Assembly: GCA_032595675.1 (NCBI GenBank)
Contig: JAVQMD010000001.1
Location: 938,640-962,639 of the forward strand
From: Candidatus Electrothrix rattekaaiensis
GTDB lineage: Bacteria > Desulfobacterota > Desulfobulbia > Desulfobulbales > Desulfobulbaceae
Length of the DNA stretch: 24,000 nt
Direction: 5' to 3'
The notes below the pieces were generated by a model that ran no database searches, was not told the origin of the DNA, and worked only from the letters and a program-made list of their open reading frames with translations. A program made the position numbers and the translations under genes. How positions within the stretch are numbered: the stretch's first letter is position 1; the number at the start of each line of letters is the position of its first letter. Shown here piece by piece: positions 6,559 through 22,950 of this stretch.

Positions 6559-6821
6559 GTTTGGTTGGCGCATGCTTCGAACATGCACTCCGGCCTGTAC
6601 CCCCATCGCTGCGCGGTTAAATTTTGCCCTGTGATACCGAGATGAGCATATCTCATTTTTTCAACAGCAATTTTCTGTTTACTTTTTAATTCGAAATGGT
6701 TAAAGAATACTGCCAATAGCATATTGATTCGATTCATAGAGATTAACTTTTCGTTGCCAGTATATGTGATTTTTTTTGTTTGTTGATACTGTTATTCAAT
6801 AAAACAATAGGGGGGGAAGTA

Positions 6822-7709
6822 ATGTGGTTAACATCAATAATGATTATAATTTCTGCGTTTATTGCTTTAAACGGTTTGCTGTACCAACCCAAAAAAGATC
6901 CGAATGATTCTGTTAACTGGTCTAATATTAATTTTTTTGGAAGGGTCTTATTTTGTCTTTTGGTTTTATTGGCTTTGCTTAATATCATAAAAATTTATGG
7001 TGACGAAAAAACACATCAGGATGATCTATTATCTCACAATAAACAAAAAGAAAAGCTTCTAAAATCTCAAGAAGATTTACGGAATAACAATAAAAAGTTA
7101 ATTGCAAATCAAATTGAATTAAAGGGGCAAAACAAGAGATTGAGTGAATCTCAAAATGAACTTAAGGATGAAAATAAACATCTAATCAAAGTGATGTCAG
7201 TTGCTAATGGGTACAATGCTGTTATCAGCGGGGTGGTTTCTTTTGAAAAAGAAAAAAGTGATTCAGATCTAAGGGATGCATTAAGGAATTTGTTACTTAA
7301 ATATGTAGAAATTAATATTAGTGCCTCCAATAAATTTGGAGATTATAAAGGAAAAGTAAATTATGGCACACAACCTGTGGTTAGAAGATTCTTATCAATT
7401 GCAGGTTTGAAGCTAAATGAGCTCTTGCGGACAGATAGGAGAACTACTACGAAAATTCTTGAATATCATAATTGTTTAGGATCAAGCTATTATTTCGAGC
7501 TAAGAGTGAGTAATTTAAAGATTCTTAACAGTGACAAAATTCAATATGCTGAATTTGGTCCTCAAAATTCAATTAAAGCAAGTGCCTATATATTTGACTC
7601 GCATAAAGATTTTCAGCGAATATATAACGTAAATTGTATTGTTATTGGCGAAATTGAAATAGAAGAAATAGGCACCCTCCCGATCAACGAGCAAATGTTT
7701 TTCTTTTAA
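6822..7709 (+). CDS. Hypothetical membrane-anchored coiled-coil protein (AT-rich orphan)
   Basis: ATG 6822 is preceded by GGGGGGAAG. The track start at 6780 is a TTG with no RBS. Features: two N-terminal hydrophobic helices (MWLTSIMIIISAFIALNGLL; VLFCLLVLLALLNIIKI), a K/E/N/Q-rich heptad-like stretch (KEKLLKSQEDLRNNNKKLIANQIELKGQNKRLSESQNELKDENKHLIK), then a ~170-aa C-terminal region with no motif I recognise. Stop TAA 7707-7709. Confidence 0.6.
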   Translation: MWLTSIMIIISAFIALNGLLYQPKKDPNDSVNWSNINFFGRVLFCLLVLLALLNIIKIYGDEKTHQDDLLSHNKQKEKLLKSQEDLRNNNKKLIANQIELKGQNKRLSESQNELKDENKHLIKVMSVANGYNAVISGVVSFEKEKSDSDLRDALRNLLLKYVEINISASNKFGDYKGKVNYGTQPVVRRFLSIAGLKLNELLRTDRRTTTKILEYHNCLGSSYYFELRVSNLKILNSDKIQYAEFGPQNSIKASAYIFDSHKDFQRIYNVNCIVIGEIEIEEIGTLPINEQMFFF

Positions 7710-7721
7710 GATCAATGAAAG

Positions 7722-7810
7722 ATCAATGGGGTCAGAGTCGATTGATCCCAGAATTGGAATTGCTGCAAAAATAGCATCCAGCTCCTTTGTTTCCCGTCTT
7801 CACGCAACAG
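7722..7810. repeat. Dispersed repeat, copy A (cassette-border element; overlaps the HigA-type remnant's 3' end)
   Basis: ATCAATGGGGTCAGAGTCGATTGATCC (7722-7748) matches ATCAATAGGGCCAGACTCGATTGATCC (10449-10475). The ..CTTCACGCA.. block near 7797-7806 matches the TTCAC(A/G)CA block in copies B and C. Confidence 0.6.
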
Positions 7811-7952
7811 CCAGTCGGCACCCCAATGCCTTGATACCCCTGCTGACTGTGAAAAATCCCGGATTACCCTCTCCGGCAGGAGCCTTGTACAGGCTCTCAC
7901 GATTCAGCCCGACCACTTCGGCCATCATTGCCTGCTGTGGGCTTCCAAGCTG
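7800..7952 (-). pseudogene. 3' remnant of a HigA-family HTH antitoxin gene (no 5' part, no partner toxin)
   Basis: The minus-strand translation reads QLGSPQQAMMAEVVGLNRESLYKAPAGEGNPGFFTVSRGIKALGCRLAVA*. This resembles the C-terminal half of 'addiction module antidote' HigA-type proteins (..G.sRe.LYkaLs.eGNP.f.T...v.kALG.rL). It abuts the vapC stop in a different frame, so it cannot be complete. Confidence 0.5.
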
Positions 7953-7954
7953 AC

Positions 7955-8377
7955 TCAAAGCATCTTCCACGGATTCAGTATTGCCTGATGACTCGGGGAA
8001 AAATCTCCTTCATTTCGTGTCACGACAGTCATCTGGTATACTGATGCCGTGGCGGCAATGTACCCGTCAATAATCGACATCCTCTGTCCTGAATCCTCCG
8101 CCCGCGCCTGCATAATCCCCCATGCTTCGGCAACAGCACGATCAACAGGGAGAATCCTGTCACTATAGTCCGCCAGCAGCGTCTCAAGCCACATCATCAG
8201 GTGGCTTTTCTTTTTTGACTCGGGCAGCCGCGTAATACCTCGTTTCAACTCTCCTATTGTGAGGGAACTCAGAAACAGGCGGTCCGCAGGAGTCTGGGCA
8301 AGCCAGTCAGTCACAGCAGTATTTGGTCGAGGTTTGACCAGCTCGGAAATCACGCATGTGTCCAGCAGATAATTCAT
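7955..8377 (-). CDS. vapC: Type II toxin VapC (PIN-domain ribonuclease)
   Basis: 140 aa. N-terminal MNYLLDTCVISE (PIN Asp), then ..IDGYIAATA..TVVTRNEGDF. It overlaps the upstream antitoxin gene by 4 nt (ATGA). Confidence 0.9.
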   Translation of the reverse strand: MNYLLDTCVISELVKPRPNTAVTDWLAQTPADRLFLSSLTIGELKRGITRLPESKKKSHLMMWLETLLADYSDRILPVDRAVAEAWGIMQARAEDSGQRMSIIDGYIAATASVYQMTVVTRNEGDFSPSHQAILNPWKML

Positions 8378-8634
8378 AGGTCGAGTTCCCTCGGATATTC
8401 ATGCTGCCTCTCAAACAGATCGGCATTATTGCCGATTTTTGGAGCACTCAACAGGAAGTCGGTAAACGAGGGCTTCTGCGAGGTCAATTTCTCATAATCA
8501 CGGACCGACAGTACAACGACGGTATCAACACCTCTCCGCTTAACATATTGCGGCCCGTGCGTGAGTGCTTCGTTGACCACTCGACTGAATTTGTTTTTGG
8601 CATCCTGAAGTGCCCAAGTTGTTCTTCTTATCAT
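8374..8634 (-). CDS. Type II antitoxin, Phd/YefM family
   Basis: 86 aa. TWALQDAKNKFSRVVNEALTHGPQYVKRRGVDTVVVLSVRDYEKL is the typical Phd/YefM N-terminal fold signature. AAGGAGAA RBS upstream; translationally coupled to vapC. Confidence 0.85.
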   Translation of the reverse strand: MIRRTTWALQDAKNKFSRVVNEALTHGPQYVKRRGVDTVVVLSVRDYEKLTSQKPSFTDFLLSAPKIGNNADLFERQHEYPRELDL

Positions 8635-8676
8635 ATATTGTTCTCCTTGCAGTTATTTCTTTTTAGCACCTTCCAC

Positions 8677-8712
8677 CTAGACAGTCTAGCTGTATTTTAG
8701 GATATTCGTCAA
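8677..8712 (-). promoter_or_regulatory. Candidate autoregulated promoter/operator of the phd-vapC operon
   Basis: On the minus strand: TTGACG (complement of 8707-8712), an 18-nt spacer, then TAGACT. The perfect palindrome CTAGAC-A-GTCTAG (8677-8689) overlaps the -10, ~45 nt upstream of the start at 8634. Confidence 0.4.
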
Positions 8713-8743
8713 GATTTTTCTTACTAATCCAATTTTTGTGAAT

Positions 8744-8870
8744 TTGGGACAGACCACGTTTTCGTTTTTTATCCAACCGGATACGCCACCATATTCCGGC
8801 AGGATTACTTTTCCTCCTGAATCTTCACACATTCTCAACCGAAACATGCTGTAAATGTTTAGTTAGTGTG
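8744..8870. repeat. Dispersed repeat, copy C (downstream of the second TA cassette)
   Basis: CGCCACCATATTCCGGCAGGA (8784-8804) matches CGCCCCATATTTCGGCAGGA (10490-10509). CTGAATCTTCACACATTC (8817-8834) matches CTGAATTTTCACGCATTC (10523-10540). A TAGTTAG block follows in both. The 5' block GGGACAGACCACGTTTT parallels GGG(T/C)CAGA(G/C)TCGATT of copies A and B. Confidence 0.6.
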
Positions 8871-8932
8871 AGGCAGCCATTTTGTTATGCGGAGCAACAG
8901 TAATCAGGGCATCTTTCAACGGAACAAGCCAT

Positions 8933-9322
8933 TCAATCCCAAGCAGCCAATTCGTACTCTCTCCTGATCACCTGATCCTTTGTCAACAGCACAGCCTGAT
9001 GAGTCGCCGCTGTGGCGGTAATGATCCTGTCAAACGGATCTTTTGTCCACGACATCCGCATTGCTTCCGTCATCACCCTGGCAAAAGATGAACGACATTT
9101 TTGCAGGCCTATACTCTCTGCAAGTGAATCAAATATCACGGTGGGTTCAACAGTGATTCTCTTGATTTCAAACAGATATTGAAGTTCAAGCAATACTAGC
9201 GGAGAAATCAGCAGTTCGTTTTCCTCTATGAGTTGACCGGCTTTTTCAGAGAGCAGGCTCGGATCACCACTGTACAGCCAGACCACAACATGGGTATCAA
9301 GGTAAATCATGTTTCCACTCAT
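8933..9322 (-). CDS. vapC: Type II toxin, PIN domain (VapC-like)
   Basis: 129 aa. MIYLDTHVVVW (PIN Asp) ... DPFDRIITATA..LLTKDQ. The start could be ATG 9322 or ATG 9310. Either way it overlaps the upstream antitoxin's 3' end. Confidence 0.85.
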   Translation of the reverse strand: MSGNMIYLDTHVVVWLYSGDPSLLSEKAGQLIEENELLISPLVLLELQYLFEIKRITVEPTVIFDSLAESIGLQKCRSSFARVMTEAMRMSWTKDPFDRIITATAATHQAVLLTKDQVIRREYELAAWD

Positions 9323-9527
9323 CCGACCAGTCTATATGGACTAAAGACTCCGGGGCCCCTTGTATACAGGCATGTTTTGTCAGTCGAGACAGCTTGGAAA
9401 CCGGTTTTTTCGGGGTGATTTGTAATCGCTGTCCCTTCCTTTCCACTTCCAGAGGTCTGCCTGATTGGAGTACCTTATCAAGAAGCTTGTAGATATTGCC
9501 CCGCAGGGCTGATGCGGTAATCGACAT
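9297..9527 (-). CDS. Type II antitoxin, Phd/YefM-like
   Basis: 76 aa. SALRGNIYKLLDKVLQSGRPLEVERKGQRLQI is a typical Phd/YefM N-terminus. The imperfect palindrome ACGACTGTA-GTA-TACAGTGTCGT (core CTGTAGTATACAG 9560-9572) lies ~35 nt upstream and is a possible operator. Confidence 0.8.
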   Translation of the reverse strand: MSITASALRGNIYKLLDKVLQSGRPLEVERKGQRLQITPKKPVSKLSRLTKHACIQGAPESLVHIDWSDEWKHDLP

Positions 9528-9867
9528 ATTTTATCTCCTGAGATTTTGTTTACGTACGACTGTAGTATACAGTGTCGTTCGTTCGTTTGCAAACAGCTTT
9601 CTCTACGCCAAGATTGAAAAAAGACAGTGGGCCTGTACAGGCTCTCTTGATTCAGCCCGGCCACCTCGGTTCCTTTTTTCTAGCACAGAGTTCGGATCTA
9701 AACCCGCTGGTCTTTAAACAGGTCCAATGGTGCATCCCCTGAAAATTTGCACATACCAGACTCAATTAGAATACAAGGCACAGGCGCTTGCATAATGATG
9801 AAAAATGCATTATTCTCAAAAGAGGTTTAAATAACAGGTTAAAAATACGTCTTTAGGGAGAAGTGCC

Positions 9868-10119
9868 ATGCCATCTTTACAAGTGAGAGAGTTGCCGGTT
9901 AATATTTATCATCGTTTGCAAAAAAGGGCGAAAGCGGAACATCGCAGTCTTGCCCAGGAGGCTGTCGTTACCTTGGCAAGAGGTATGGAGACCGCTGTTT
10001 CCCATAAAGATCGCAGGAGAAAATTGCTTCGGACTATTGCTGAGCAAACATGCTTTGTAGGCAAAAAAAGGGCATCTGTGGATCCTGTTCAACTTGTCAG
10101 GGAGGATCGTGAGCGATGA
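9868..10119 (+). CDS. Ribbon-helix-helix antitoxin (FitA/VapB-like)
   Basis: 83 aa. MPSLQVRELPVNIYHRLQKRAKAEHRSLAQEA is the RHH signature (beta-strand, then helices). RBS AGGGAGAAG. Its stop overlaps the ATG of the downstream PIN gene (ATGA at 10116-10119). Possible promoter: TTGCAT (9788-9793), 17-nt spacer, TATTCT (9811-9816), with inverted repeat TGCAT/ATGCA inside the spacer. Confidence 0.7.
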   Translation: MPSLQVRELPVNIYHRLQKRAKAEHRSLAQEAVVTLARGMETAVSHKDRRRKLLRTIAEQTCFVGKKRASVDPVQLVREDRER

Positions 10120-10340
10120 TCGCTGTCCTTGATGCAAGTGCGGCCAGTGGAAGTTGTTCTGCAACGCCCTATGGCAGGGCAGCTGAGTAGGTATCTGAGT
10201 GAGGCGGACTGGGTGGCCGCGCCGACTCTGTTTATTTCGGAAGTCACGAATGTTTTTTGGAAATATCAGCGGTTGACAGACCTTTCTTTGCAGGACTGTG
10301 AGCGAGGCCTTGAACAAGCTGTTGCTCTACCTGATGATGT
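10116..10340 (+). pseudogene. vapC: vapC-like PIN toxin gene, frameshifted and 3'-truncated
   Basis: ATG 10116 gives MIAVLDASAA and then runs out of frame to TAG 10188-10190. The PIN sequence continues in the +1 frame (VEVVLQRP..EADWVAAPTLFISEVTNVFWKY..) in track ORF 10129-10440. This is consistent with one extra base near 10146. PIN-like sequence is lost after ..AVALPDD (~10340), and the C-terminal acidic residues are missing. Confidence 0.6.
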
Positions 10341-10448
10341 TATCGTAAATAGGGGACGTAGCACGTTTTTCAATAATCCCTCCCACCGTTCCATTCGTTT
10401 GCGTAATTATTCCCTTGCCAATTGCATGCTCCCAAGATAAATTTGCAA

Positions 10449-10578
10449 ATCAATAGGGCCAGACTCGATTGATCCATGATGGGTAAATGCGCCCCATATT
10501 TCGGCAGGACAACCTCCCCCTTCTGAATTTTCACGCATTCAAGCGCAGAGTAGGGAGGAAGATGCCTAGTTAGGTAAG
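10449..10578. repeat. Dispersed repeat, copy B (downstream of the decayed third TA cassette)
   Basis: See copies A and C. This copy carries both the 5' hairpin block ATCAAT-N14-ATTGAT (10449-10475) and the 3' blocks shared with copy C (10490-10509, 10523-10540, TAGTTAGG ~10568). Confidence 0.6.
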
Positions 10579-10612
10579 AACGCGTTGTTGTGAAAAATAA
10601 GGAGAGTCAGTT

Positions 10613-11005
10613 ATGATAAAACAGGAAACACATAGTGTGGCAATGGGGTACATCCTCTGGATCTTCGGTTTCATGGGGATGCATCGATTCTACTACGGCA
10701 AACCGATCTCCGGCACCGTGTATTTTTTCACGCTGGGCTTGCTCGGTATCGGTTGGATCATTGATCTGTTTCTGATTCCGGGTATGGATCGTGAAGCTGA
10801 CCTTCGCTTTGCTCCGGGATCTAAAGATTATAATATATGCTGGATTTTACTGGTCTTCCTTGGAGTTTTTGGGGTTCATCGTATGTACATGGGAAAGTGG
10901 CTGAGCGGAATCCTCTATCTTCTTACATTAGGGGTATTCGGTTTAGGTATCCTTTACGATCTCTGGACCCTGAATGATCAGCTCTCGCTCGTGAATGCTG
11001 CGTGA
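10613..11005 (+). CDS. TM2 domain-containing membrane protein (two TM2 repeats)
   Basis: 130 aa. GYILWIFGFMGMHRFYYGK..GIGWIIDLFLIP and LVFLGVFGVHRMYMGK..GLGILYDLWTL match the TM2-domain pattern (G.HRFY.G ... D). Strong RBS AAGGAGAG. Confidence 0.85.
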   Translation: MIKQETHSVAMGYILWIFGFMGMHRFYYGKPISGTVYFFTLGLLGIGWIIDLFLIPGMDREADLRFAPGSKDYNICWILLVFLGVFGVHRMYMGKWLSGILYLLTLGVFGLGILYDLWTLNDQLSLVNAA

Positions 11006-11097
11006 ACAGAGCTGTGGCTTTACCGCGCCTTGCTTTTGGCACTCTTGCTGCAACGTTCACCCCTTTCTCAACAGCGTATGATGTAATCCCTTACTTG

Positions 11098-11700
11098 TCA
11101 TGTCACCTTTTTATCATAAAGAACCAGAAAGACCAGCAGCGTAATAAAGAGCCCCACATGGATCATAAGCAGCAGGGCCGCAGTGGTAAAAGAAGCTGAA
11201 AAGCCTCCGCTCTGGAGCTTGAGATCATTACGTGCGAAAAAGTTTTTCTGAAACGTTTTCTTATCAGCTTCACTCGGCACGTATAAGGTGTAGGACTCTG
11301 AGTCATTTTTAAACGGCAGGGCGACGCCATGCCGCTGATAAATAAGTTGGGCTGCAATACGCCGTTTATTGCCACTGACTGCGGTAACCAGATACTCTGC
11401 CAACTCCTCCTGTATTCCTTTGTTCACTTCTTCCGCGATTTGTTGCTGCATAGCAAAGCTCCCGCGAATGATAACCAGCAGGAAGGAAATATTAACAAAA
11501 AATATAGCGATAAAGAACAGAGCAAAATATTTTCTTTTTTCCTGATTCGCAACCTGCCAAAAACTGACCGGCAGCAAAACAGACAGAAGCAATGCGAAGG
11601 GAAATTGAATCGAATCCTGTTTAACCAGTTCAGGAAAGAAGCAGTAACCCAGCAGAAAGAACGCCCAGATGAGACCGGTCACCCCAGTTATTTTCTTCAT
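11098..11700 (-). CDS. Hypothetical polytopic membrane protein
   Basis: The first ATG is at 11700 (MKKITGVTGLIWAFFLL..). The longer track ORF to 11844 begins with TTG and adds a non-hydrophobic leader. There are four to five hydrophobic segments and no recognised family. Confidence 0.55.
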   Translation of the reverse strand: MKKITGVTGLIWAFFLLGYCFFPELVKQDSIQFPFALLLSVLLPVSFWQVANQEKRKYFALFFIAIFFVNISFLLVIIRGSFAMQQQIAEEVNKGIQEELAEYLVTAVSGNKRRIAAQLIYQRHGVALPFKNDSESYTLYVPSEADKKTFQKNFFARNDLKLQSGGFSASFTTAALLLMIHVGLFITLLVFLVLYDKKVT

Positions 11701-12067
11701 ATTTTCCAAACAAATTGAGTGTAAGGGGAGGGTTGATGAAAATAATCGTCCAAGATATGCCTCCCTAAGAACAGGAATTTTGCTACCTCTGTCTACCTTC
11801 TCGGTGACGGTCTGAGCTTCTCTGGTAGTGTAGCCCCTTGACAAGGGAACGCAAGAGCTAATCTTATTTTCTTTACTCGTGGCACGGTGTTGTACTAAAA
11901 AATGGTGTTCCAGGTGCTCGTTGACTTTTTTTTATGTTGCCAGATCACCAAGGAGTTTATATATATTAAAAGTAAAAAAAACTTTACCGCTTGTATCCGG
12001 AGAGAATGCAGTTCGTCCGAAATACGGGCAATGAGATAAACTTCACAGAACAAGGAGAGTGAGAACC

Positions 12068-13189
12068 ATGAAACTGAAAGTGTTGGCACAGGCTGCTGTT
12101 TTAGTCGTGCTGTCGGCGGGTGTCGCCTTTGCCGGAGGCAGAGCCTTCACCTGCGACGACTGCTCCGATGAATGTTTGGAAAATCCTTACAGCAAAGGAT
12201 GTCCTTCCGTCTGTAAAGATCCAGAATGTCAATCATCCCAAGCATCCTGCGACGACTGCTCAGATGAATGCAAAAAAAACCCGTATGGTGCAGATTGCCC
12301 AGATATCTGTAGGGATGTAACTTGCCAGTCCTGCGAGGACTGTACGGACGAATGTAAAATCAACCCCTATGGCGAAGGCTGTCCCGATATATGCCGTGAC
12401 ATAAAATGTTACAGTTGTGACGACTGTTCTGTAGAGTGTATCGAGAATCCTGAAGGACAGGATTGTCCGCCTGTCTGTGACGAGTTGGGTTGTAATATTT
12501 GCGATAAATACCCCACTGACTGCCCTGCATCCTGCAAAGAAGGATCTCAGGATCAGGAAGGCTGTCCGGCTGAATGTCAGGATGTACCGGAAGAGTGCCT
12601 GTCTGATGACTCTACAGAAACAACTGCAGCGATCACTTGTGATGACTGCCCAGCAGAATGTGAAGACAACCCCTATGCAAAAGGTTGCCCAGCAGAATGT
12701 CAGGAACTCGATTGTTACGGCGGCGGAGTAATGGGACCACTTCGTTTTGTTGGCGACATCGGTTACCTGCGTCTTTCCGATCCGGCTGATTATCTCTTTG
12801 CCCGTCTGGGTGTGGAGTACAGCCCCTTTGCAGCAGGCACCTCACTTGAAAATCTTTCTTTCCTGGCTATGGTCGGTGCCGCTCCAAAGCTGGATGGTTC
12901 TGACGGTGACGATGCGCTGTTGATGGATGTCTTTGCCCAGTACAACTGGTCCGGTACCTTTGACGGCTTTATCGGTCTTGGTTTCGGTGGTTGGATCACA
13001 GATAATGACAGCAATCTTGACTCTGATGACTCTGATCTCGACTTTCTGGCTAATATCGGAGCACGTGTATACGGCGATCAAGATGACTTCAATGTTTCCG
13101 TCTTCCTGGAAGCTCGAAATGCTGTTGATGAGCTGAGCGACATGGATCAATATGGACGTTTTGGTATAGGGTTGCGCTTCCAGCGCTAA
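12068..13189 (+). CDS. Secreted cysteine-rich repeat protein (6 x 6-Cys modules) with Cys-free C-terminal beta-rich domain
   Basis: ATG 12068 follows RBS AAGGAGAG (12052-12059). Signal peptide MKLKVLAQAAVLVVLSAGVAFA. Six tandem modules lie at 12152-12715 with spacing C-x2-C-x3-C-x8-C-x3-C-x4-C (CDDCSDECxxNPYxxxCPxxCxxxxC). The C-terminal ~150 aa has an alternating hydrophobic pattern (..FIGLGFGGWIT.., ..GRFGIGLRFQR). Stop TAA 13187-13189. Confidence 0.8.
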   Translation: MKLKVLAQAAVLVVLSAGVAFAGGRAFTCDDCSDECLENPYSKGCPSVCKDPECQSSQASCDDCSDECKKNPYGADCPDICRDVTCQSCEDCTDECKINPYGEGCPDICRDIKCYSCDDCSVECIENPEGQDCPPVCDELGCNICDKYPTDCPASCKEGSQDQEGCPAECQDVPEECLSDDSTETTAAITCDDCPAECEDNPYAKGCPAECQELDCYGGGVMGPLRFVGDIGYLRLSDPADYLFARLGVEYSPFAAGTSLENLSFLAMVGAAPKLDGSDGDDALLMDVFAQYNWSGTFDGFIGLGFGGWITDNDSNLDSDDSDLDFLANIGARVYGDQDDFNVSVFLEARNAVDELSDMDQYGRFGIGLRFQR

Positions 13190-13262
13190 TTGTTCGTATC
13201 ATAGAGAAGTAGCAGCCGTACAGCAGCGAAGTAAAGCTTCTTGCAAAGGAAGCTTCTACAAA

Positions 13263-13294
13263 GGGCACAGGGAATTTTCCCTGTGCCCTTTTTT
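13263..13294 (+). terminator. Rho-independent terminator after the Cys-rich gene
   Basis: GGGCACAGGG (13263-13272), loop AATTTT, CCCTGTGCCC (13279-13288), then T6 (13289-13294). A second hairpin precedes it: AAGCTTCTT-GCAA-AGGAAGCTT (13234-13255). Confidence 0.75.
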
Positions 13295-13471
13295 GCTTGT
13301 CTCTTACCGAAAGAGAAGAAGGTAGAGGGGGAGGGGGGAGTATAAAGAGGGGATTATGGAAATGGAACAGAGGGGGGGAACCGGCGAGCAAACGCCTCGG
13401 TTAATAGAGGGCAATTAGAGGGCAATGGTATGCAGGAGCAACACCGTTGCCCTCATCATTAGCTACGCCCC

Positions 13472-14104: not shown

Positions 14105-14707
14105 ATGCATATTTCAGAAGGAATTCTCTCGGCACCGGTTCTGATAAGCGGCGGAGTTTTTACTGCCATTGGCACCTTTATTGGGTTGAAAAAAATTGAT
14201 CTTGAACAGATTATGCCTGTTGCTCTGCTTTCCGCTGCTTTTTTTGTTGCAGGACTTGTTCATGTTCCTCTCGGGCCGGGATCCGTACACCTGATGCTCA
14301 TCGGACTTCTTGGTGCCATGCTGGGCTGGGCTGCTTTCCCGGCAATTCTTATCGCTCTTTTTCTTCAGGCCCTGTTTTTCCAATTCGGCGGTTTTGCCGT
14401 CCTCGGGGTGAACACGGTCATAATGTCTGCTCCAGCACTCTGCTGTTATTATTTGACCCGTCCTTGGATGGACAATCCCAAAACACGACCTGCTGCCGCA
14501 TTTATTGCAGGCTTCTTGGCAATTTTCCTGGCCTCGCTACTGACCGCCTGTGCTCTTGCCCTTACCGATACCGGTTTTACAGCTGCTGCGCAACTCATTA
14601 TTGCAGCCAATGTTCCGCTCATGATCATTGAAGGATGTATCACCATGTTTACTGTCGGTTTTCTCGCCAAGGTCCAACCAGAAATTTTACACCTCGAATA
14701 CGCATGA
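14105..14707 (+). CDS. cbiM: CbiM/NikM-family Ni2+/Co2+ ECF substrate-capture (S) component
   Basis: 200 aa. It begins with the hallmark MHISEGIL (Met1-His2 metal-binding N-terminus) and has multiple TM helices (..VHLMLIGLLGAMLGW.., ..NVPLMIIEGCITMF..). Its stop overlaps the next start (ATGA 14704-14707). Confidence 0.9.
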   Translation: MHISEGILSAPVLISGGVFTAIGTFIGLKKIDLEQIMPVALLSAAFFVAGLVHVPLGPGSVHLMLIGLLGAMLGWAAFPAILIALFLQALFFQFGGFAVLGVNTVIMSAPALCCYYLTRPWMDNPKTRPAAAFIAGFLAIFLASLLTACALALTDTGFTAAAQLIIAANVPLMIIEGCITMFTVGFLAKVQPEILHLEYA

Positions 14708-15309
14708 ATCGCTCTCGTCTCCTGGCAATACTCTTCTTTGCCGTATTGTTTTCGTTGTTCGCGCGGTCTGCTCAAGCGCATAAGATGAGTGTGTTTTCAT
14801 GGGCAGGTGACCAGCAGATTTACGGAGAGGCTTTTTTTAGCGGAGGGCGTAAGGTAAAAAATATACCGGTTCACGTTCAAAACAACGAAACCCAAACCAC
14901 CCTGCTGACAACCCAAACCGACGACAAAGGAAAGTTCCAATTCAGCCCTCCTCAACAGGCTGTTCAGCAAAAGCTAGATCTCTTGATCACAGTGGATTCC
15001 GGGGATGGTCATCGAGGAGAATGGCTTCTGACAGCAGACGAGTATCTTTTAACAGACGATGCCCCTTTGTCGGCTCCTCAAAAAGATCGACCAACGGCAG
15101 AGGGCTTTGACGTGGAGACTGTACGTGAAATCGTGCGGCAAGAGCTGAAGAGAGAATTGGTCCCCATTAAACGGCATCTTGCTGAAGGAAGCGAAAAAAA
15201 AGTCAACCCACGGGATATACTGGGCGGGGTCGGCTGCATTATCGGGCTGGCTGGCATCTTTGCCTGGTTCCAATCAAAAAAGAAGAAGAAAACTTCGACA
15301 GACGGATAA
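14704..15309 (+). CDS. NikL-like accessory protein (signal/anchor, periplasmic beta-sandwich-like domain, C-terminal TM anchor)
   Basis: ATG 14704 is coupled to the cbiM stop. N-terminal MNRSRLLAILFFAVLFSLFARSAQA|HKM. The middle region (..IPVHVQNNETQTTLLTTQTDDKGKFQFSPP..) resembles CarboxypepD_reg/transthyretin-like folds. C-terminal TM ILGGVGCIIGLAGIFAWF is followed by KKKKK. The position after nikM matches the NikL slot of NikKMLQO-type systems. Assignment is by context only. Confidence 0.6.
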   Translation: MNRSRLLAILFFAVLFSLFARSAQAHKMSVFSWAGDQQIYGEAFFSGGRKVKNIPVHVQNNETQTTLLTTQTDDKGKFQFSPPQQAVQQKLDLLITVDSGDGHRGEWLLTADEYLLTDDAPLSAPQKDRPTAEGFDVETVREIVRQELKRELVPIKRHLAEGSEKKVNPRDILGGVGCIIGLAGIFAWFQSKKKKKTSTDG

Positions 15310-15390
15310 GGTATCCCTTGTCGGCAAAAGAGGATCTTGCTCAATCATGATCCAGAAAATAATACTTGAGTTAAAAAAGGAGTAATAACG

Positions 15391-16158
15391 ATGAAGATCA
15401 AAGCTGTCGCTGCAACTGCACTCTTTCTCGCCTGCATGACAGGTGAGGCCCTTGCCCATTTCGGAATGATTATCCCCTCGGAGAATATCCTGACACCGAA
15501 AAAGAAGAGCGTTCAACTTGACCTCTCTTTTTCCCATCCTTTTGAAATAATCGGTATGGAATTGGATAAGCCGAAAGCATTCTTTATGGTGTCTGGCGAT
15601 CAGAGAACAGACTTGATTCCGTCTCTCAAAGCGACCAAAGTGATGGATAACCCGAGCTGGACAACGCAAGTTTCCATCAAACGTCCTGGAGTATATACCT
15701 TTGTCATGGAGCCGACCCCGTATTGGGAACCAGCTGAAGACTTGCATATCATCCATTACACCAAAACCATAATTGCCGCCTTTGGTGATGATCAAGGCTG
15801 GGATGAGCCTGTGGGGATTGCCACAGAAATCGTCCCACTGACCCGTCCCTTTGGGAATTATGCAGGCAACAGCTTTTCTGGCCAAGTCTTACTGGACGGA
15901 AAGCCGGTTCCCGGTGCGGAGGTCGAAGTGGAGCTGTACAATAAGGACAAGAAATTCAGTGCTCCCAGCGATTACCACGTCACCCAGGTCGTCAAGGCTG
16001 ACGAAACCGGGGTTTTCACCTTTGCTTGTCCCCAAGCAGGATGGTGGGGGTTTTCCGCCCTGAATGAAGCCGACTATACCATCAAGGATCCTGAAGGCAA
16101 CGAGAAAGGGGTTGAGCTGGGTGCTGTGCTTTGGACCTATCTGGATGCCTACAAATAG
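15391..16158 (+). CDS. DUF4198 / NikK-like periplasmic metal-binding component
   Basis: RBS AAAAGGAG. Signal peptide MKIKAVAATALFLACMTGEALA|HFGMIIPS. The body (..VYTFVMEPTPYWEPAED.., ..GQVLLDGKPVPGAEVEVELYN.., ..DETGVFTFACPQAGWWGF) fits the DUF4198 pattern (COG5266-type periplasmic component). Confidence 0.75.
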   Translation: MKIKAVAATALFLACMTGEALAHFGMIIPSENILTPKKKSVQLDLSFSHPFEIIGMELDKPKAFFMVSGDQRTDLIPSLKATKVMDNPSWTTQVSIKRPGVYTFVMEPTPYWEPAEDLHIIHYTKTIIAAFGDDQGWDEPVGIATEIVPLTRPFGNYAGNSFSGQVLLDGKPVPGAEVEVELYNKDKKFSAPSDYHVTQVVKADETGVFTFACPQAGWWGFSALNEADYTIKDPEGNEKGVELGAVLWTYLDAYK

Positions 16159-16611
16159 AAACGTTTCTTCTCCAGCCTTTTCAGAAAGAGAGCTTTGCTG
16201 GCAACCTCCAGGTTTCCGGCACCCTTGCCCGCAGCGTAACCGGCCTTCTGGTCAGTTATGAGCTCAGCGGCAACCTGGATGATCTCTTTCTTCCTGCTCT
16301 GAGGAGCTCGTCCCGCCGCAGGGACGGGCTCTGGCTATGCTCTCTCCCTTTGCGGTTCCCAGCCTGATTTCCATCAACGGGAAAGCTTTCTGGTGCGGCT
16401 CTAACGGCTCTCACTGGAACGTATGTAATACTCCCCCCTCTGCCGATTGCCTTGGCAAGCCCGCCCCGCTCCCCTGCCTGTTACCATTTCCCTGTTCGAC
16501 AGCAGCGAGAAACTCTGCTATATAGATTCAATGCTTGGAGGGGCGCAGAAGGCATTGCAGGGAACGTCGCTCCTGACGCAACAACAACCTGAATCCAAGG
16601 GGAGAGACATC

Positions 16612-18744
16612 ATGGGAGATACGTCCGGCAACAGCAGGTTCGACAAGAGTGGCAGCGGCGACCAGAATGTTGGTCAGGGCGATGGGGCTATTGGTAAGCA
16701 GGTGAACGTCACGCAGGAGGTGCGTGGGAACAACAATATCTCCTCCGGTACCGGTAATGTCACGGTGACCTACAACAGCATTTCCCCTGATGTGCTTGCT
16801 GATGTCCGCAAGCTGGCCGTTACTGATGCCGCCCTTGCCAGCTTCTTCAAGATACTGGAGGAGCAGCAGGTTCCGCACAGCGACCTGGACAACAAGCTGC
16901 GGGAGATAGCCGGGCAGTACAAGGAGCTGCTTCTGCGCCTGGAGACCGTGCAGTCGGAAGACCCGCAGGTACAGCGGCTCAAGGAAGAGGCGGGACAGGC
17001 CATTGAGGCTGGTGATTACGCCAAGGCCGAGGAGCTGCTGAATCAAGCCGAGGCCCGCGATGTGCAGGCGATAGAGCAGCTTGAGGAGGCCATCAAGCAA
17101 CAACAGGATGCGGCCCGGCAGCGGCGTATCTCTGCTGCTGATACCAATGTTTCCCAAGCCCTTGCCCAGCGTATGCAGTTGCGCTATGCCAAGGCTGCCG
17201 AGTATTGGCAGAAGGCCGCTACCCTGCTGCCGGAAGACCAGAAGAAGGAACGCTCGCTTTATCTGAGTAACGCAGGATATGACTTCCACCGGGTTGCTCG
17301 CTACAACGATGCCCTGCCCCTGTTTGAGCAGAGCTTTGCGATAGACCAGGAGATCGGCTTCAAGGCAGGACAAGGCGCGACGCTGAGTAACATCGGTGCG
17401 ATTCACCATGCCAAGGGTGACTACGATAAAGCCCTGCCCTTGTTTGAGCAGAGCGTAGCTATATTTCATGAGAGCGGCGGCAAGGCGGAAGAAGGTGCCT
17501 TGCTGAACAACATCAGCCAGATTTACAAGGCGCGGGGCGACTACACCACGGCCCTCAAGTATCTGGAGCAGAGCCTTGTCATCAGGCAGGAGATTGGCGA
17601 CAAGGCAGGGGAAGGCACGACGCTGAACAACATCGCTGGTATTCACAGGGCGCGGGGCGACTACACCACCGCCCTCACGTATCTGGAGCAGAGCCTTGTC
17701 ATCAGGCAGGAGATTGGCGACAAGGCAGGGGAAGGCACGACGCTGAACAACATCAGCCAGATTTACGATGCGCGGGGCGACTACACCACCGCCCTCAAGT
17801 ATCTGGAGCAGAACCTTGTCCTCTTCCGAGAGATTGGTGATAAGGCTCATGAAGGAGGCACCCTGAACAACATCAGCCAGATTTACGATGCACGGGGCGA
17901 CTACGACACCGCCCTCACGTATCTGGAGCAGAGCCTTGTCATCACGCAGGAGATCGGCGACAAGGCAGGGGAAGGCACGACCCTGAACAACATCAGCCAG
18001 ATTTACAAGGCGCGGGGCAACTACGCCACCGCCCTCAAGTATCTGGAGCAGAGCTTGGCGATAATGCAGGAGATCGGGGCCAAGATGGAGGAGGCGGTTA
18101 TGAGCTGGAACATCGGCATGATTTACGATGCGCGGGGCGACTACACCACCGCCCTCAAGTATCTGGAGCAGAGCCTTGTCATCAGGCAGGAGATCGGCGA
18201 CAAGGCCGGGGAAGGCACGACCCTGAGTAACATAGGTGCGATTCACCATGCCAAGGGCGAGTACGCCGCCGCCCTCAAGTATCTGGAGCAGAGCCTTGTC
18301 ATCAGGCAGGAGATTGGTGATAAGGCAGGGGAAGGCGCGACGCTGAGTAACATCGGTGCGCTTCACCATGTCAAGGGCGACTACGACAAGGCCCTGCCCT
18401 TGTTTGAGCAGAGCGTAGCTATATTTCACGAGAGCGGCAGCAAGGCGGAAGAAGGTGCCTTGCTGAACAACATCAGCCAGATTTACGATGCGCGGGGCGA
18501 CTCCGCCACCGCCCTCAAGTATCTGGAGCAGAGCCTTGTCATCACGCAGGAGATCGGGGCCAAGATGGAGGAGGCGGTTATGAGCTGGAACATCGGCATG
18601 ATCTACAAGAAGCAGGGCGACCTGCGCAAGGCGGAGCAGTACATCAGCCGGGCTGTGCAGCTTGCCGAGGAGATCGGTCATCCTTCCTTGGAGAAATACC
18701 GCGAGGGATTGGCAACGGTACGGGCGGCGATCAAGGCGCGGTAG
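16612..18744 (+). CDS. Tetratricopeptide-repeat protein (about twelve 40-aa TPR_10/12-like units) with N-terminal Gly/Asn-rich and coiled-coil region
   Basis: ATG 16612 is preceded by AAGGGGAGAG. Alternative starts are ATG 16531 and TTG 16447, neither with an RBS. Repeat consensus: ALKYLEQSLVIRQEIGDKAGEGTTLNNISQIYDARGDYTT. Stop TAG 18742-18744. Confidence 0.85.
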   Translation: MGDTSGNSRFDKSGSGDQNVGQGDGAIGKQVNVTQEVRGNNNISSGTGNVTVTYNSISPDVLADVRKLAVTDAALASFFKILEEQQVPHSDLDNKLREIAGQYKELLLRLETVQSEDPQVQRLKEEAGQAIEAGDYAKAEELLNQAEARDVQAIEQLEEAIKQQQDAARQRRISAADTNVSQALAQRMQLRYAKAAEYWQKAATLLPEDQKKERSLYLSNAGYDFHRVARYNDALPLFEQSFAIDQEIGFKAGQGATLSNIGAIHHAKGDYDKALPLFEQSVAIFHESGGKAEEGALLNNISQIYKARGDYTTALKYLEQSLVIRQEIGDKAGEGTTLNNIAGIHRARGDYTTALTYLEQSLVIRQEIGDKAGEGTTLNNISQIYDARGDYTTALKYLEQNLVLFREIGDKAHEGGTLNNISQIYDARGDYDTALTYLEQSLVITQEIGDKAGEGTTLNNISQIYKARGNYATALKYLEQSLAIMQEIGAKMEEAVMSWNIGMIYDARGDYTTALKYLEQSLVIRQEIGDKAGEGTTLSNIGAIHHAKGEYAAALKYLEQSLVIRQEIGDKAGEGATLSNIGALHHVKGDYDKALPLFEQSVAIFHESGSKAEEGALLNNISQIYDARGDSATALKYLEQSLVITQEIGAKMEEAVMSWNIGMIYKKQGDLRKAEQYISRAVQLAEEIGHPSLEKYREGLATVRAAIKAR
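17281..18600 (+). repeat. Eleven tandem 120-bp coding repeats inside the TPR gene
   Basis: The units sit in register at 17281, 17401, ... 18481. Many are near-identical (for example 17521-17640 vs 17641-17760). Higher-order duplications also occur: 17401-17520 ~ 18361-18480 and 18061-18120 ~ 18541-18600. Confidence 0.9.
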
Positions 18745-18766
18745 GGGCAATCCCCTGTGATTGCCC
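18745..18766 (+). terminator. Hairpin directly after the TPR stop (weak terminator candidate)
   Basis: GGGCAATC-CCCTGT-GATTGCCC, followed by ATTGTAATT, which is only moderately T-rich. Confidence 0.35.
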
Positions 18767-18902
18767 ATTGTAATTCCTGCGGGGCCGGTAGGGGCCGGTC
18801 CCCGTGCCTGCCCGTGCTAGTTTCCGGGGAGACACAGGGGTCTCCCCCTACACGCAACCTGCGGATTCATCATGCCCAGCAGGGACGAGAAATCTTTCCC
18901 TC

Positions 18903-19100
18903 CCTGCGCATACACCCCGTATGCCGAGGCGCATACCCTCCGTATGCCCCTGCGCATACACCCCGGTATGCCCCTGCGCATATGCCCCCGTATGCCCCTG
19001 CGCATATACCACCATATGCCCCTGCGCATATACCCCCGTATGCCCCTGCGCATATATCCCCATATGCCCCTGCGCATAGGCCCTGTATGTCGAGGCGCAA
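18903..19100. repeat. Tandem array of eight 23-24-nt units plus a partial unit, TATGCCCCTGCGCATA + 8-nt variable tail
   Basis: Unit starts: 18920, 18943, 18967, 18991, 19015, 19039, 19063, 19086. The core has palindromic ends, TATGC..GCATA. The first and last units are variants (TATGCCGAGGCGCATA, TATGTCGAGGCGCAA). There are no unique spacers. Confidence 0.9.
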
Positions 19101-19119
19101 GCTTTCTGGCAAAGAATGC

Positions 19120-19148
19120 TTGACAGAACCGGGCCACCTCTTTACGAT
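19120..19148 (+). promoter_or_regulatory. Candidate sigma70 promoter of the DUF4469-like gene
   Basis: TTGACA (19120-19125), 17-nt spacer, TACGAT (19143-19148). It lies 20 nt downstream of the tandem array. RBS AAGGAGG at 19193-19199, ATG 19208. Confidence 0.4.
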
Positions 19149-19207
19149 GAGTTGTCGAAGCTCTTCCCGGTATTCTCAAACCCTTATGCTGTAAGGAGGT
19201 AGCCATC

Positions 19208-20284
19208 ATGACCATTCAATGCAAATCAGAAACCAACACCCTGACCACACCCGACTCCTACATTGTCCGCTTTGTGCCCCGTAACACAGCGGACGAGGAA
19301 AGGCTTGCTGCGGATATCACTCTACGCCATCCCAACTTCAGCAAAGCCGACATCCTGACCATCCTGAACGCTGAGGACGAGGTCATTCTGGAGCGGCTGC
19401 TCAACGGCGAGCAGGTGACCAAGCACGGCAGCTTCAGCTGGTATCTCACCTTTACCGGCAGATTGGAGAACGCGGACGATCCGCTGCCGCCTCTGGACGA
19501 GTGCCTGCACGCCAAAATGCGTTTCTCGCAGAACTTTATTGAACGCCTGCGTCAGGCCGCCCGTATTGAGCGGCTGCCGGTAACCGAAAAACGGCCAATC
19601 ATCGTCTTTGCCGAAGACACAGTGCTGGGGCTGCACAACGTGTTGCGCTCGGACGGTATGCTCCTTATCACAGGCCGTAACCTCCTGTTCGACCGCAAAG
19701 AAAGCGGCTCGCATTGCCTGATTGAGGGCACCCGGAGCGGCAGCGCGGTCCAGAGCCGGGTCGGCATAATCACCAACACCGAGGTCGTGCTCATGCCTGA
19801 TGTGCCGAGCCAGCCTGATCCGTGGAACAACGAATACCGTCTTTCCCTGACCACCCGCTACACCGAGCACGGCACCCCGCGCACTGGCATCTACAAACGG
19901 CTGCTCCGCACGCCCTTGGCTGTTGCGCTGAGGGACGGAGGTGGCCCGCCGGTCAACATCGGCATGCTCACCGGCAATGCGACTGCACCCTATGTCTCCA
20001 TCACCGGAGGCGCAAGCAGCGCAGACGAGACCCTGCGTATCCAAGTCATTCAGAACCTGAGCGAAGATCGGCTGCTGTTCTCCTTGTTTGCAATGGAGGA
20101 GGAAGGTGCGGAAGGTACCGAGGTGCCGGTGACCGCGAACGGGACATTCACCCTGCCCGGTTTTGCAGGCTCTGCCGTGAGCAGCCTGGACATCACCGTG
20201 AACGACTACGCCGCGCTGTGGGAGATGGTCCGCAATAACTACGGCGGCTGGTTGGTGGATGTGCTGATGATCGAGCAGGTATAG
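19208..20284 (+). CDS. HU-like/DUF4469-type putative DNA-binding protein with extra C-terminal domain
   Basis: 358 aa with a strong RBS. The N-terminal third (YIVRFVPRNT..ADILTILNAEDEVILERLLNGEQVT..FTGRLENADDP) and middle part (..VLGLHNVLRSDGMLLITGRNLLFDRKESG..CLIEG...NTEVVLMPDVP..YRLSLTTRYT) match my memory of the HU_HIG-like + DUF4469 (Ig-like) architecture. This is a by-eye call. Confidence in coding status is higher than in function. Confidence 0.65.
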   Translation: MTIQCKSETNTLTTPDSYIVRFVPRNTADEERLAADITLRHPNFSKADILTILNAEDEVILERLLNGEQVTKHGSFSWYLTFTGRLENADDPLPPLDECLHAKMRFSQNFIERLRQAARIERLPVTEKRPIIVFAEDTVLGLHNVLRSDGMLLITGRNLLFDRKESGSHCLIEGTRSGSAVQSRVGIITNTEVVLMPDVPSQPDPWNNEYRLSLTTRYTEHGTPRTGIYKRLLRTPLAVALRDGGGPPVNIGMLTGNATAPYVSITGGASSADETLRIQVIQNLSEDRLLFSLFAMEEEGAEGTEVPVTANGTFTLPGFAGSAVSSLDITVNDYAALWEMVRNNYGGWLVDVLMIEQV

Positions 20285-20305
20285 AGAGGCAAGAGACACC
20301 GCATC

Positions 20306-21871
20306 ATGGCGAAATACTTCAATACCACCGGCCCCTGCTTTCCCCGGTTGCACTATATGTTGCCGCCCAAGGACCGGCTGGTAGGGGCCAGCCTAGACCG
20401 CTACATCCGCGATGAACTGTACTGGGTACTGCACGCGCCCCGGCAGACCGGCAAGACCACCTTTCTCCAATCCTGGATGCATGAAATCAACGCCGGAACC
20501 GAGGCCGTGGCCTGCTACGTCAGCCTGGAGACCTGTCAGGAAGTGACAGAGGTGGAGCGGGCCATGCCTGCAATGGCTACGGCTGTACAACAACATGCAG
20601 AACGGTTTCATGTTCCTGCCCCGGACTACCCTTCTGAAGTCTCTCCAGAAAACATGCTTTCCGCGCTGCTGATTGACTGGGCTTGCTGGACACCAGATAA
20701 TCCCGCAGATCATGCATCCCGACCAGAGCGACCGAGACAGGAAACGTGCCTATGCCACGACCGGCAAAGCCGCTCCGTAGCTGGCGGAGAAAGCTGACCA
20801 GAGCAGGACCAGCAACAACATCGACTTCGTCGAACAGAACAATCAGCTTTTTCGGCGCAGCAACACAAGGACGGCAGATCCCTTCATCCGGGCAGTCCCT
20901 TCAACATCAAGCATGACTCAGCCACCCTGAGTAATTTCAGTCAGGCCGACATTGCCGCCCTGACCTCCCAGCATAGCCAAGCAACCGGGCAGCAGTTCAC
21001 CCCGGAGGCCCTGAAGCGGATCTGGGCCTGTTCTTCCGGTCAGCCTTGGTTGGTCAACGTTTTATGCGAGCAGATTGTTTACCGGATTATTCTTGAGGCT
21101 CAAGCTGCTGTGCTGCCCGAGCATGTGGATCAGGCACGAGAACGGCTCATCGCCTCACGGGCCACCCATATTGATTCCTTGGGGGAACGCCTCCGGGAGG
21201 AGCGGGTGCGCCGGGTGATCCAGCCGATGATGATCGGGGAAAGTGATCCAAACTTAGGGCGTTCCGACCGCGATGTGGAGTTCTGCCTTGATCTCGGTCT
21301 GATCACCTGGGATGGTTCGCTGGTCATCGCCAATGCCATCTACCGGGAAGTCATTGCCCGCTCCCTGAGTCAGAATTATCAGGACAATATTCCCGCCCCG
21401 GAATTCTCCTGGCAGCGGCCAGACGGTAGCCTAGACATGGACGCCCTGATGGACGAGTTCCAGAAGTTTTGGGCTTGGAATTCCGAGATATGGGAGGAAA
21501 AGGCGGACTACACCGAAGCCTTTCCCCATCTGCTGCTTATGGCCTTTCTCCAGCGTATTATTAACGGGGGCGGCAGGGTGGATCGGGAATACGCTGCCGG
21601 GCGAGGGCGGATGGACCTGCTGATTCGCTTCGGCGGTGGTATTAATCTGATAGAGATCAAGCTGGTACACCCAAGGATGGGTCGGGAGGCGACCCGGGAC
21701 CAAGGTCTGGAGCAGGTTGAGCGTTATGCTGATCAAACCGGTCCTGATACCTGTCATCTGGTCATCTTTGACCGGCGCACGGATCAGCGCGGCAAAGCTT
21801 GGAAGGAACGGCTTTCTCATGAGACCTGCACAACGCTGTCCGGGCGTTCGGTAGAGGTGATCTGGTGCTGA
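20306..21871 (+). pseudogene. AAA-ATPase-like + PD-(D/E)XK (PDDEXK_9-type) protein gene, interrupted by an in-place inversion of its Walker-B segment
   Basis: - N-terminal part (20306 on): MAKYFNTTGPC..HYMLPP..APRQTGKTT (Walker A) ..LLIDWA, then nonsense to TGA 20795-20797.
- C-terminal part, same phase: KDGRSLHPGSPFNIKHDSATLSNF..GQPWLVN.. to GRMDLLIRF..LIEIKL (nuclease motif), stop 21869-21871.
- The missing middle is encoded on the opposite strand (see the next feature). Confidence 0.85.
20682..20869. other. Inverted intragenic DNA segment (180 bp between 4-bp inverted cores CTTG / CAAG)
   Basis: The reverse complement of 20686-20865 reads, without stops, CVAAPKKLIVLFDEVDVVAGPALVSFLRQLRSGFAGRGIGTFPVSVALVGMHDLRDYLVSSK (Walker B LIVLFDEVD). 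Flipping it joins ..IDWA|CVAAP.. and ..YLVSSK|DGRSLHPGSPFNI.. in frame, giving 521 codons across 20306-21871. Confidence 0.8.
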
Positions 21872-21939: not shown

Positions 21940-22950
21940 CTACTTCTCAAAGAGCGTGGAGATATTGCCAAGCACAGATCCTTCGCCCACGCTCTGTCCG
22001 CCAGCTTTGGGAGCAGCCGCCCAGATTCGTCCGGCCAGCCGGGAAAAGGGCAGGGATTGCAGCCAGACATGGCCTGGCCCGCGTAGGCTGGCAAAGAAAA
22101 ACCCCTCGCCGCCAAACACAGCTGATTTCACATTGCCTACATACTCAATATCATAATTCACGGTCTGGGTCAGGGCGACCAAGCAACCCGTGTCCACCCG
22201 TAGGGTTTCTCCTGCCTGGAGCTGCCGTTCCACGATGGTGCCGCCAGCATGGACAAAGCACAGTCCATCACCGTCCAGCTGCTGCATAATGAATCCTTCC
22301 CCACCGAATAAGGCTGTGCCGAGTCTTTTCTGAAAAGCGATTCCAATGGCAACCCCCTTGGCTGCGCAGAGAAAGGCGTCCTTTTGGCAGATAATTCGGT
22401 TGCCGTACTGGGTCAGATCCAGAGGAATAATCTTGCCCGGATACGGGGAGGCAAAGGCGACCTTGCCTTTGCCCTGGCCCTGAAAGGTGAACATGGTGAT
22501 GAACAGCCCTTCGCCAGTGATCAGCCGTTTACCCGCACCGAGCATTTTATCGAAGAAACCGCCTTGCTGGGAAGAGGCAGAGCCGTCACCGAAGATGGTC
22601 TCCATCTTGATGAAATCGCTCATGTACATCATGCTGCCTGCCTCGGCCACCACGCTTTCCTGCGGATCAAGCTCAATCTCGACAAACTGCATCTCGTGCC
22701 CGAAGATCTCATAATCGATCTCGTGAGCCTGTCGTCCGCTCATGGGAGGAGGTGTGCTACCGCTGCCGCCTGCCGCAGCACCGGGATCGGTCAGTTCCTT
22801 GACCTGCTCTATTGGTAACCAATCACTGAATCCTTCCCGCCAGACCATAGTGCCGAGATTATACTGGCCGGAGCGTACCCCGGCGATCATCTGTTCATGG
22901 GAAAAAGGACCGACGGTCTGTCCGTTGACTGCAACATACCAGTTGTACAT
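21940..22950 (-). CDS. GYF_2 (DUF4339)-domain + TIGR00266/AIM24-family protein
   Basis: 336 aa. The N-terminal [34 protein letters not shown] is the GYF_2 pattern. After a Gly/Pro linker comes the AIM24/DUF124 pattern: IDYEI.G...[22 protein letters not shown] ... GEGLF...F.G.G.V.FA ... FGGEGF ... G.G.VWLQSLP. Confidence 0.85.

Follow-up and report, generated by a model that had tools for sequence, protein, structure and literature searches.

A recent in-place inversion at a 4-bp microhomology has probably disrupted an AAA-ATPase/PD-(D/E)XK family gene in Candidatus Electrothrix rattekaaiensis

Results and discussion

A gene split by an inverted internal block

Towards the end of the window (the whole stretch of DNA that was analysed, 24,000 nt in length), two plus-strand ORFs at 20306–20797 (163 aa) and 21050–21871 lie in one phase, and had been described from the letters alone as parts of a single gene. 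Reverse-complementing 20686–20865 in silico and translating 20306–21871 joined both into one open frame of 521 codons plus stop, as that preliminary description had predicted, and the same restored sequence was obtained from any cut within the two 4-nt cores that flank the inverted piece (Table 1), which measures 180 bp, or 188 bp with the cores counted. The description had also held that the reverse complement of this block is stop-free and encodes the missing part of the protein; the second part of this statement stood, but frame 1 of the reverse complement of 20686–20865 contains a stop, and the coding frame is located one base in, because the Cys127 codon consists of TG of the core plus T.

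In the orientation as found, the frame reaches the premature TGA, so that only the proposed Walker A stub of 163 aa can be made, consisting of 126 native residues followed by 37 antisense-coded residues. Walker A is located in the stub, Walker B and the conserved block following it are on the opposite strand, and the nuclease domain is cut off from the start codon. A Pfam AAA_22 match over residues 40–184 was obtained with the flipped version only, and a PDDEXK_9 match with both the given and the flipped version. Only after the in-silico flip are Walker A, Walker B and the C-terminal PD-(D/E)XK block colinear in one polypeptide, and as read from the sequence, the present allele is a null allele.

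Table 1. Features of the split gene, in window coordinates
Feature	Position	Strand	Remark
N-terminal part of the gene, codons 1–125 and first base of codon 126	20306..20681	+	aligns forward to homologs
Walker A, APRQTGKT	20435-20458	+	motif in restored protein
Left breakpoint core CTTG, 4-bp inverted microhomology	20682..20685	.	from GCT TGT (Cys127 codon, only in this lineage)
Inverted 180-bp block	20686..20865	-	residues ~127–187, with Walker B LIVLFDEVD and VALVGMHDLRDYLVSSK
Premature TGA	20795..20797	+	from antisense reading of the inverted block; ends the 163-aa stub
Walker B, LIVLFDEVD	20820-20846	-	motif in restored protein
Right breakpoint core CAAG	20866..20869	.	from AGC AAG, which most homologs share
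C-terminal part of the gene, codons 189–521 and stop	20870..21871	+	phase is that of the N-terminal part
Five lineage-specific substitutions within 10 nt, codons 191–194	20876..20887	+	AGGCTCCTCAAT to AGATCCCTTCAT (L192S, N194H)
PDDEXK_9-like region	21512-21736	+	C-terminal D...E-x-K block

Surroundings of the split gene

Upstream on the same strand, separated by short gaps and all within 16447–20284, are the gene for a 765-aa TPR protein (16447–18744), a 145-aa ORF and a 358-aa ORF (19208–20284); on its other side the split gene is followed by an AIM24 gene (21940–22950). The TPR protein showed weak CARF/LmuB-like PADLOC matches at its N-terminus, and the 358-aa ORF had a weak HU-type DNA-binding match. 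An Rfam scan of the window gave no hits.

Several other parts of the window are worth recording. The 820-aa and 541-aa ORFs at 2380–6480 form one gene through an in-frame TGA (4840–4842, motif IDHCARL-U-HAPTVA), the product of which appears to be a putative selenocysteine formate-dehydrogenase-like molybdopterin enzyme with an N-terminal fusion of 2Fe-2S, Fer4_20 and pyridine-nucleotide oxidoreductase domains. A nickel/cobalt ECF uptake cluster (14105–16158) consists of CbiM/NikM (14105–14707), a NikL-family subunit (14635–15309, NCBIfam E = 3e-47) and a DUF4198 protein (15391–16158), with no riboswitch detected upstream by Rfam; as the conductive fibres of cable bacteria make use of nickel, the cluster may be of relevance. 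The stretch from about 6780 to 13400 contains short or unassignable ORFs and looks like a variable toxin-antitoxin island, and two PIN-domain toxin-like ORFs are present on the minus strand at 7955–8377 and 8933–9322.

Homologs agree with the flipped sequence

The restored protein matched Candidatus Electrothrix proteins of 521–523 aa with 77–90% identity (100% coverage, E = 0), which cannot be put down to chance, and a protein search returned thousands of homologs from many phyla. DNA alignment of full-length loci to the window gave three pieces, running forward at 20302–20682, reverse at 20682 to about 20860, and forward again at 20866–21871; in the locus L006 the corresponding pieces are 5996–6377, 6564–6388 and 6561–7536. 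The 4-bp overlaps between the alignment pieces are the cores, with zero bases gained or lost, and the replacement, as tested by homolog alignment, is an exact and lossless reverse complement in place.

All full-length homologous loci that were fetched were colinear with the flipped form, and the test of colinearity across both junctions that had been called for thus placed the homologs with the flipped and not with the given sequence. The inverted block was not found outside this window among the homologous loci fetched from genome collections and assemblies, and on these alignments the inversion is private to this genome among the full-length homologous loci fetched. The closest relative over the region was a gene of Electrothrix sp. 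AX5, in which the block is 94% identical at the nucleotide level and in native orientation. When 151 aa across the two restored junctions were used as query, nothing closer than 91% identity was found, and this best match was not the ON allele but a different gene, from Electrothrix sp. AX5 and in another genomic context. With regard to synteny, the neighbours of the broken gene were not found beside the homologs at homologous loci, nor was an orthologous 'empty' or intact site identified in a sister genome.

A multi-copy protein family prone to decay

The assignment of the split gene to an AAA ATPase plus PDDEXK_9-like family, as made in the preliminary description, was right in kind: the restored protein resembles AAA-ATPase proteins with a C-terminal PD-(D/E)XK (PDDEXK_9-type) domain in its Walker A and B motifs, its C-terminal D...E-x-K nuclease-like block and its length of ~520 aa. 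It differs from these in that its Pfam matches are below the curated gathering cut-offs (PDDEXK_9, PF08011, 21.8 versus 25.5 bits; AAA_22, PF13401, 24.2 versus 27 bits; AAA_35, PF14516, 18.2 versus 27 bits), and its role as nuclease-ATPase is putative. Some of the homologs do pass Pfam cut-offs, such as P0042 for PDDEXK_9 (26.4 bits) and P0090 for AAA_22 (35.3 bits). Neither an NCBIfam model for the family nor a solved structure related by sequence was found, and PADLOC gave a weak LmuA-like match (E = 7e-4).

The family is multi-copy, moves around and is prone to decay. In E. laxa, L004 has one copy and L008 has two that adjoin each other, and three contigs of the Desulfobulbaceae MAG S24.Bin023 (L005, L009 and L012) carry one copy each. 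A copy in E. gigas AU1_5 (L016, 6001–6421) has an internal deletion which joins residues 1–94 to 326–375, and the copies in E. aarhusensis MCF (L017, 19–495) and in a Logan contig from SRR26468714 (L019, 3–1429) are frameshifted, which may also be due to sequencing error. In Electrothrix sp. AX5, the closest homolog (L018, 5718–7946) adjoins a set of DUF6414, EACC1 and caspase-like (Peptidase_C14) genes, a neighbourhood resembling that of a conflict or defence system.

In several samples, short-read contigs break off within the gene, and L001, L002 and L019 do so in or beside the conserved Walker A region, where the assembly graph is presumably collapsed by near-identical paralogs. Such breaks would explain the many 'partial' family members found in databases.

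The inverted orientation is found in two assemblies

The stub of 163 aa is identical to GenBank entry MDU9048028.1 (Q3M30_04210) from Ca. Electrothrix rattekaaiensis Rat3, annotated as a 'hypothetical protein' of 163 aa on a 2.69-Mb contig. In addition, a 34.9-kb Logan contig from SRR25385360 (L002) is 100% identical and ungapped to the window from 24000 to 20488 across both junctions, while a second contig from the same accession (L001) covers 18823–20473. At the level of the assembly, L002 is unbranched through both junctions and shows a single orientation. Since the GenBank record and the independently made Logan assembly agree, the inversion is not the product of a single assembler, nor was it planted in the window.

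The preliminary description had left room for an assembly or engineering artefact, in which case the inversion would be absent from the chromosome of the organism. The behaviour of this gene in assemblies gives some ground for this, as contigs of this multi-copy family are often interrupted within the gene (L001 at window position 20473, L002 at 20488) and L015, L017 and L019 likewise start inside it; furthermore, the Logan assembly and the MAG probably derive from the same sequencing project, so that an artefact at the level of the library would be common to both. However, the junctions are identical from two independent assemblers, and Logan is a k-mer assembler, which requires reads spanning a junction and cannot be misled by a 4-bp repeat. 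Chimeric library molecules give single junctions with a duplication or deletion, and would not yield a reciprocal, lossless pair of junctions that dominates the coverage. With the stub also present in a public GenBank record in the same orientation, an artefact of assembly, library or deliberate engineering is largely excluded, and we regard it as highly improbable.

The breakpoints share four base pairs

The inverted match at the junctions is restricted to the 4 bp CTTG/CAAG, as originally described, and in the 20 bases on each side of both cores only 10/40 positions match, which is the random level. Inverted repeats of greater length, whether perfect or not, were detected at the breakpoints neither by a repeat search nor by direct alignment. 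One 8-nt inverted pair, GCTGATTG/CAATCAGC (20668–75 and 20840–47), was considered and dismissed, as it is located off the breakpoints and cannot explain them. The left core is formed in part by a Cys codon at a variable position, and is absent from all 13 homologs that were aligned at the junctions.

Inverted pairs of 4 nt are common, and this gene by itself contains 1912 of them at a spacing of 100–400 nt. Among random breakpoint pairs, 1.6–2% are expected to have 4 bp or more of microhomology (~0.016 by formula and 0.020 by simulation in this gene), and the 4-bp core is therefore mildly, not overwhelmingly, non-random, which gives moderate support for a role of microhomology. A blunt re-ligation of two breaks is a possible alternative, as 4 bp is short and a P-value of about 0.02 is only moderate.

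The restored gene shows no sign of decay

The restored 1566-nt frame contained no stop and no frameshift. Its dN/dS against the closest homologs was 0.10–0.11, with values of 0.07–0.14 among intact homologs and 0.07–0.16 for the block and both flanks taken separately. Rat3 has three private replacements (R178H, N194H and A252V) at columns that are invariant in 12 homologs, with most other sequences having 1–8. The intact frame, the lack of elevation in dN/dS and the absence of an excess of private changes together suggest that the event was recent. By a rough estimate, a disabling mutation would be likely once about 0.01 neutral substitutions per site had accumulated, and divergence between species has a dS of at least 0.58, on which scale the inversion appears to be very young.

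An ancient inversion in a gene that has long been dead would be in keeping with the clear decay of other family members (L016, L017 and L019), but is contradicted by the frame being open throughout, by the unraised dN/dS, by the number of private changes at invariant sites and by the disabling mutation that would by now have been likely. We consider such an old, fixed pseudogene very unlikely.

A reversible switch is not supported

The exact and in-frame nature of the flip raises the question of phase variation, and an intragenic ON/OFF switch was among the readings offered in the preliminary description. A recombinase encoded elsewhere would then flip the Walker B block between ON and OFF states, with the assembly having caught the OFF state. 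A lossless, perfectly in-frame flip would be expected of such a switch, and a restored gene free of decay with a dN/dS of ~0.10 would look the same if the switch was being maintained. Phase variation often affects defence genes, and a link of the family to defence is possible in view of its nuclease plus ATPase architecture and its weak LmuA match.

Intragenic invertons have been called from repeats detectable by einverted together with reads in both orientations, and are predicted to be invertase-mediated; they include Bacteroides examples which introduce premature stops, as seen here, and a validated inverton in thiC with an 11-bp repeat (Chanin et al., bioRxiv 10.1101/2023.03.11.532203). 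When repeats of some 10 bp or longer that einverted can detect were required, the 4-bp repeat with random-level flanks fell short, and neither the repeats nor the inverted state were conserved in homologs, as the left core was found in no aligned homolog and the inverted copy at no other homologous locus. Consistent with the original description, no recombinase, integrase or invertase gene was detected in the 24-kb window by Pfam, NCBIfam or PHROGs among 27 ORFs scanned, which represent the majority of the ORFs with 100 aa or more, the remainder being mainly antisense overlaps.

Across the two junctions the Logan contig has no branch, and the exact ON-orientation protein of this allele was absent from a collection of 15 billion proteins. 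A search of JGI metagenome contigs for the pattern of both flanks separated by N188 gave no hits, and the strain is therefore not present there, which says nothing on orientation. The antisense-coded tail of the stub gave no candidates when used as query, but as the stub itself was also not retrieved, this search is uninformative on recurrence of the inverted state. We thus find the ON/OFF switch not supported, and judge a programmed, reversible inverton to be very unlikely. A more unusual variant, in which a switch with essentially no inverted repeats beyond the 4-bp core depends on a recombinase or repair pathway that differs from the invertases known, is to our mind also very improbable; if it were true, cells of one filament population might differ in orientation.

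A recent spontaneous inversion as the probable origin

The reading we favour, and hold with good confidence, is that a recent, spontaneous, microhomology-mediated in-place inversion made a fresh pseudogene of one paralog of the multi-copy family. Among the options in the preliminary description, the one that the evidence supports is the fixed, microhomology-mediated rearrangement with loss of the gene. The event would have been an error of replication or repair in one AAA-ATPase/PD-(D/E)XK paralog of Ca. Electrothrix rattekaaiensis Rat3, for which two routes can be envisaged. In the first, an inter-strand template switch with return at CTTG...CAAG would produce what the four-point model terms 'inversion of a fragment only', and template-switch models do include the in-place inversion of a fragment, as outlined by Löytynoja & Goldman 2017 (PMC5453318). 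The second route would be illegitimate recombination or end-joining at the microhomology.

In both cases, translation stops after 163 residues, with Walker A followed by 37 nonsense residues. The loss of one copy by a rare type of mutation fits the birth-and-death pattern of the family. The inverted allele is the only one assembled, which would fit propagation of the strain from a single-strain, clonal enrichment, as the title of the paper describing strain Rat3 implies (PubMed 38295603).

The region next to the right junction contains a further feature that may be connected to the inversion. The five lineage-specific substitutions at 20876–20887 are located 7–18 nt outside this junction, and L192S and N194H alter residues that are otherwise conserved. 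The cluster creates an 8-nt direct copy, TCCCTTCA (20879–20886), of the sequence at 20896–20903, 17 nt downstream, and a direct match of this length arises in 3/243 alternative outcomes at the same five positions, a pattern that was noticed post hoc. The cluster is possibly a templated patch stemming from the same multi-switch event; since it was noticed only after looking, we present it as a lead and not as a result. An inverted 7-nt match near the right junction, GCAGATC, was also considered as template and rejected as not significant, with 55/243 alternatives equalling it.

Implications and comparison with known systems

On this reading, the 'hypothetical protein' Q3M30_04210 is the first part of a pseudogene made by a fresh inversion. 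In-place inversions escape gene callers and pseudogene pipelines in which only frameshifts and stops are checked, and the present locus provides a clean natural case, from a bacterial chromosome, of a lossless inversion of less than 200 bp at a 4-bp microhomology. Cases of this kind are useful for calibrating both template-switch mutation models and inverton callers, of which PhaseFinder and PhaVa would not flag the present one. The inversion is a further instance of an already known type of mutation and not a new biological system, and it leaves knowledge of cable-bacteria biology and of phase variation unchanged, unless read-level data show both orientations.

With the intragenic invertons of Chanin et al., the locus shares an inversion located wholly inside a coding sequence, a premature stop and a split ORF prediction. 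It differs from these in that the invertons have einverted-detectable repeats, a predicted invertase and reads in both orientations, whereas the present inversion has 4 bp, no invertase nearby and a single assembled orientation.

The likeness to template-switch and microhomology inversions, such as those of the Ripley quasi-palindrome and four-point models, includes an in-place reverse complement with no gain or loss, junctions within a short inverted microhomology, a one-off, lineage-specific event, and possibly a mutation cluster beside the breakpoint. The mechanism proposed here differs from these in being deduced from sequence. The Löytynoja and Goldman model was reportedly built for short, local events, and the 180-bp fragment is probably longer than those. 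Schofield et al. are said to have described in 1992 E. coli inversions between short inverted repeats, which were 12–23 bp in their assays as compared to 4 bp here.
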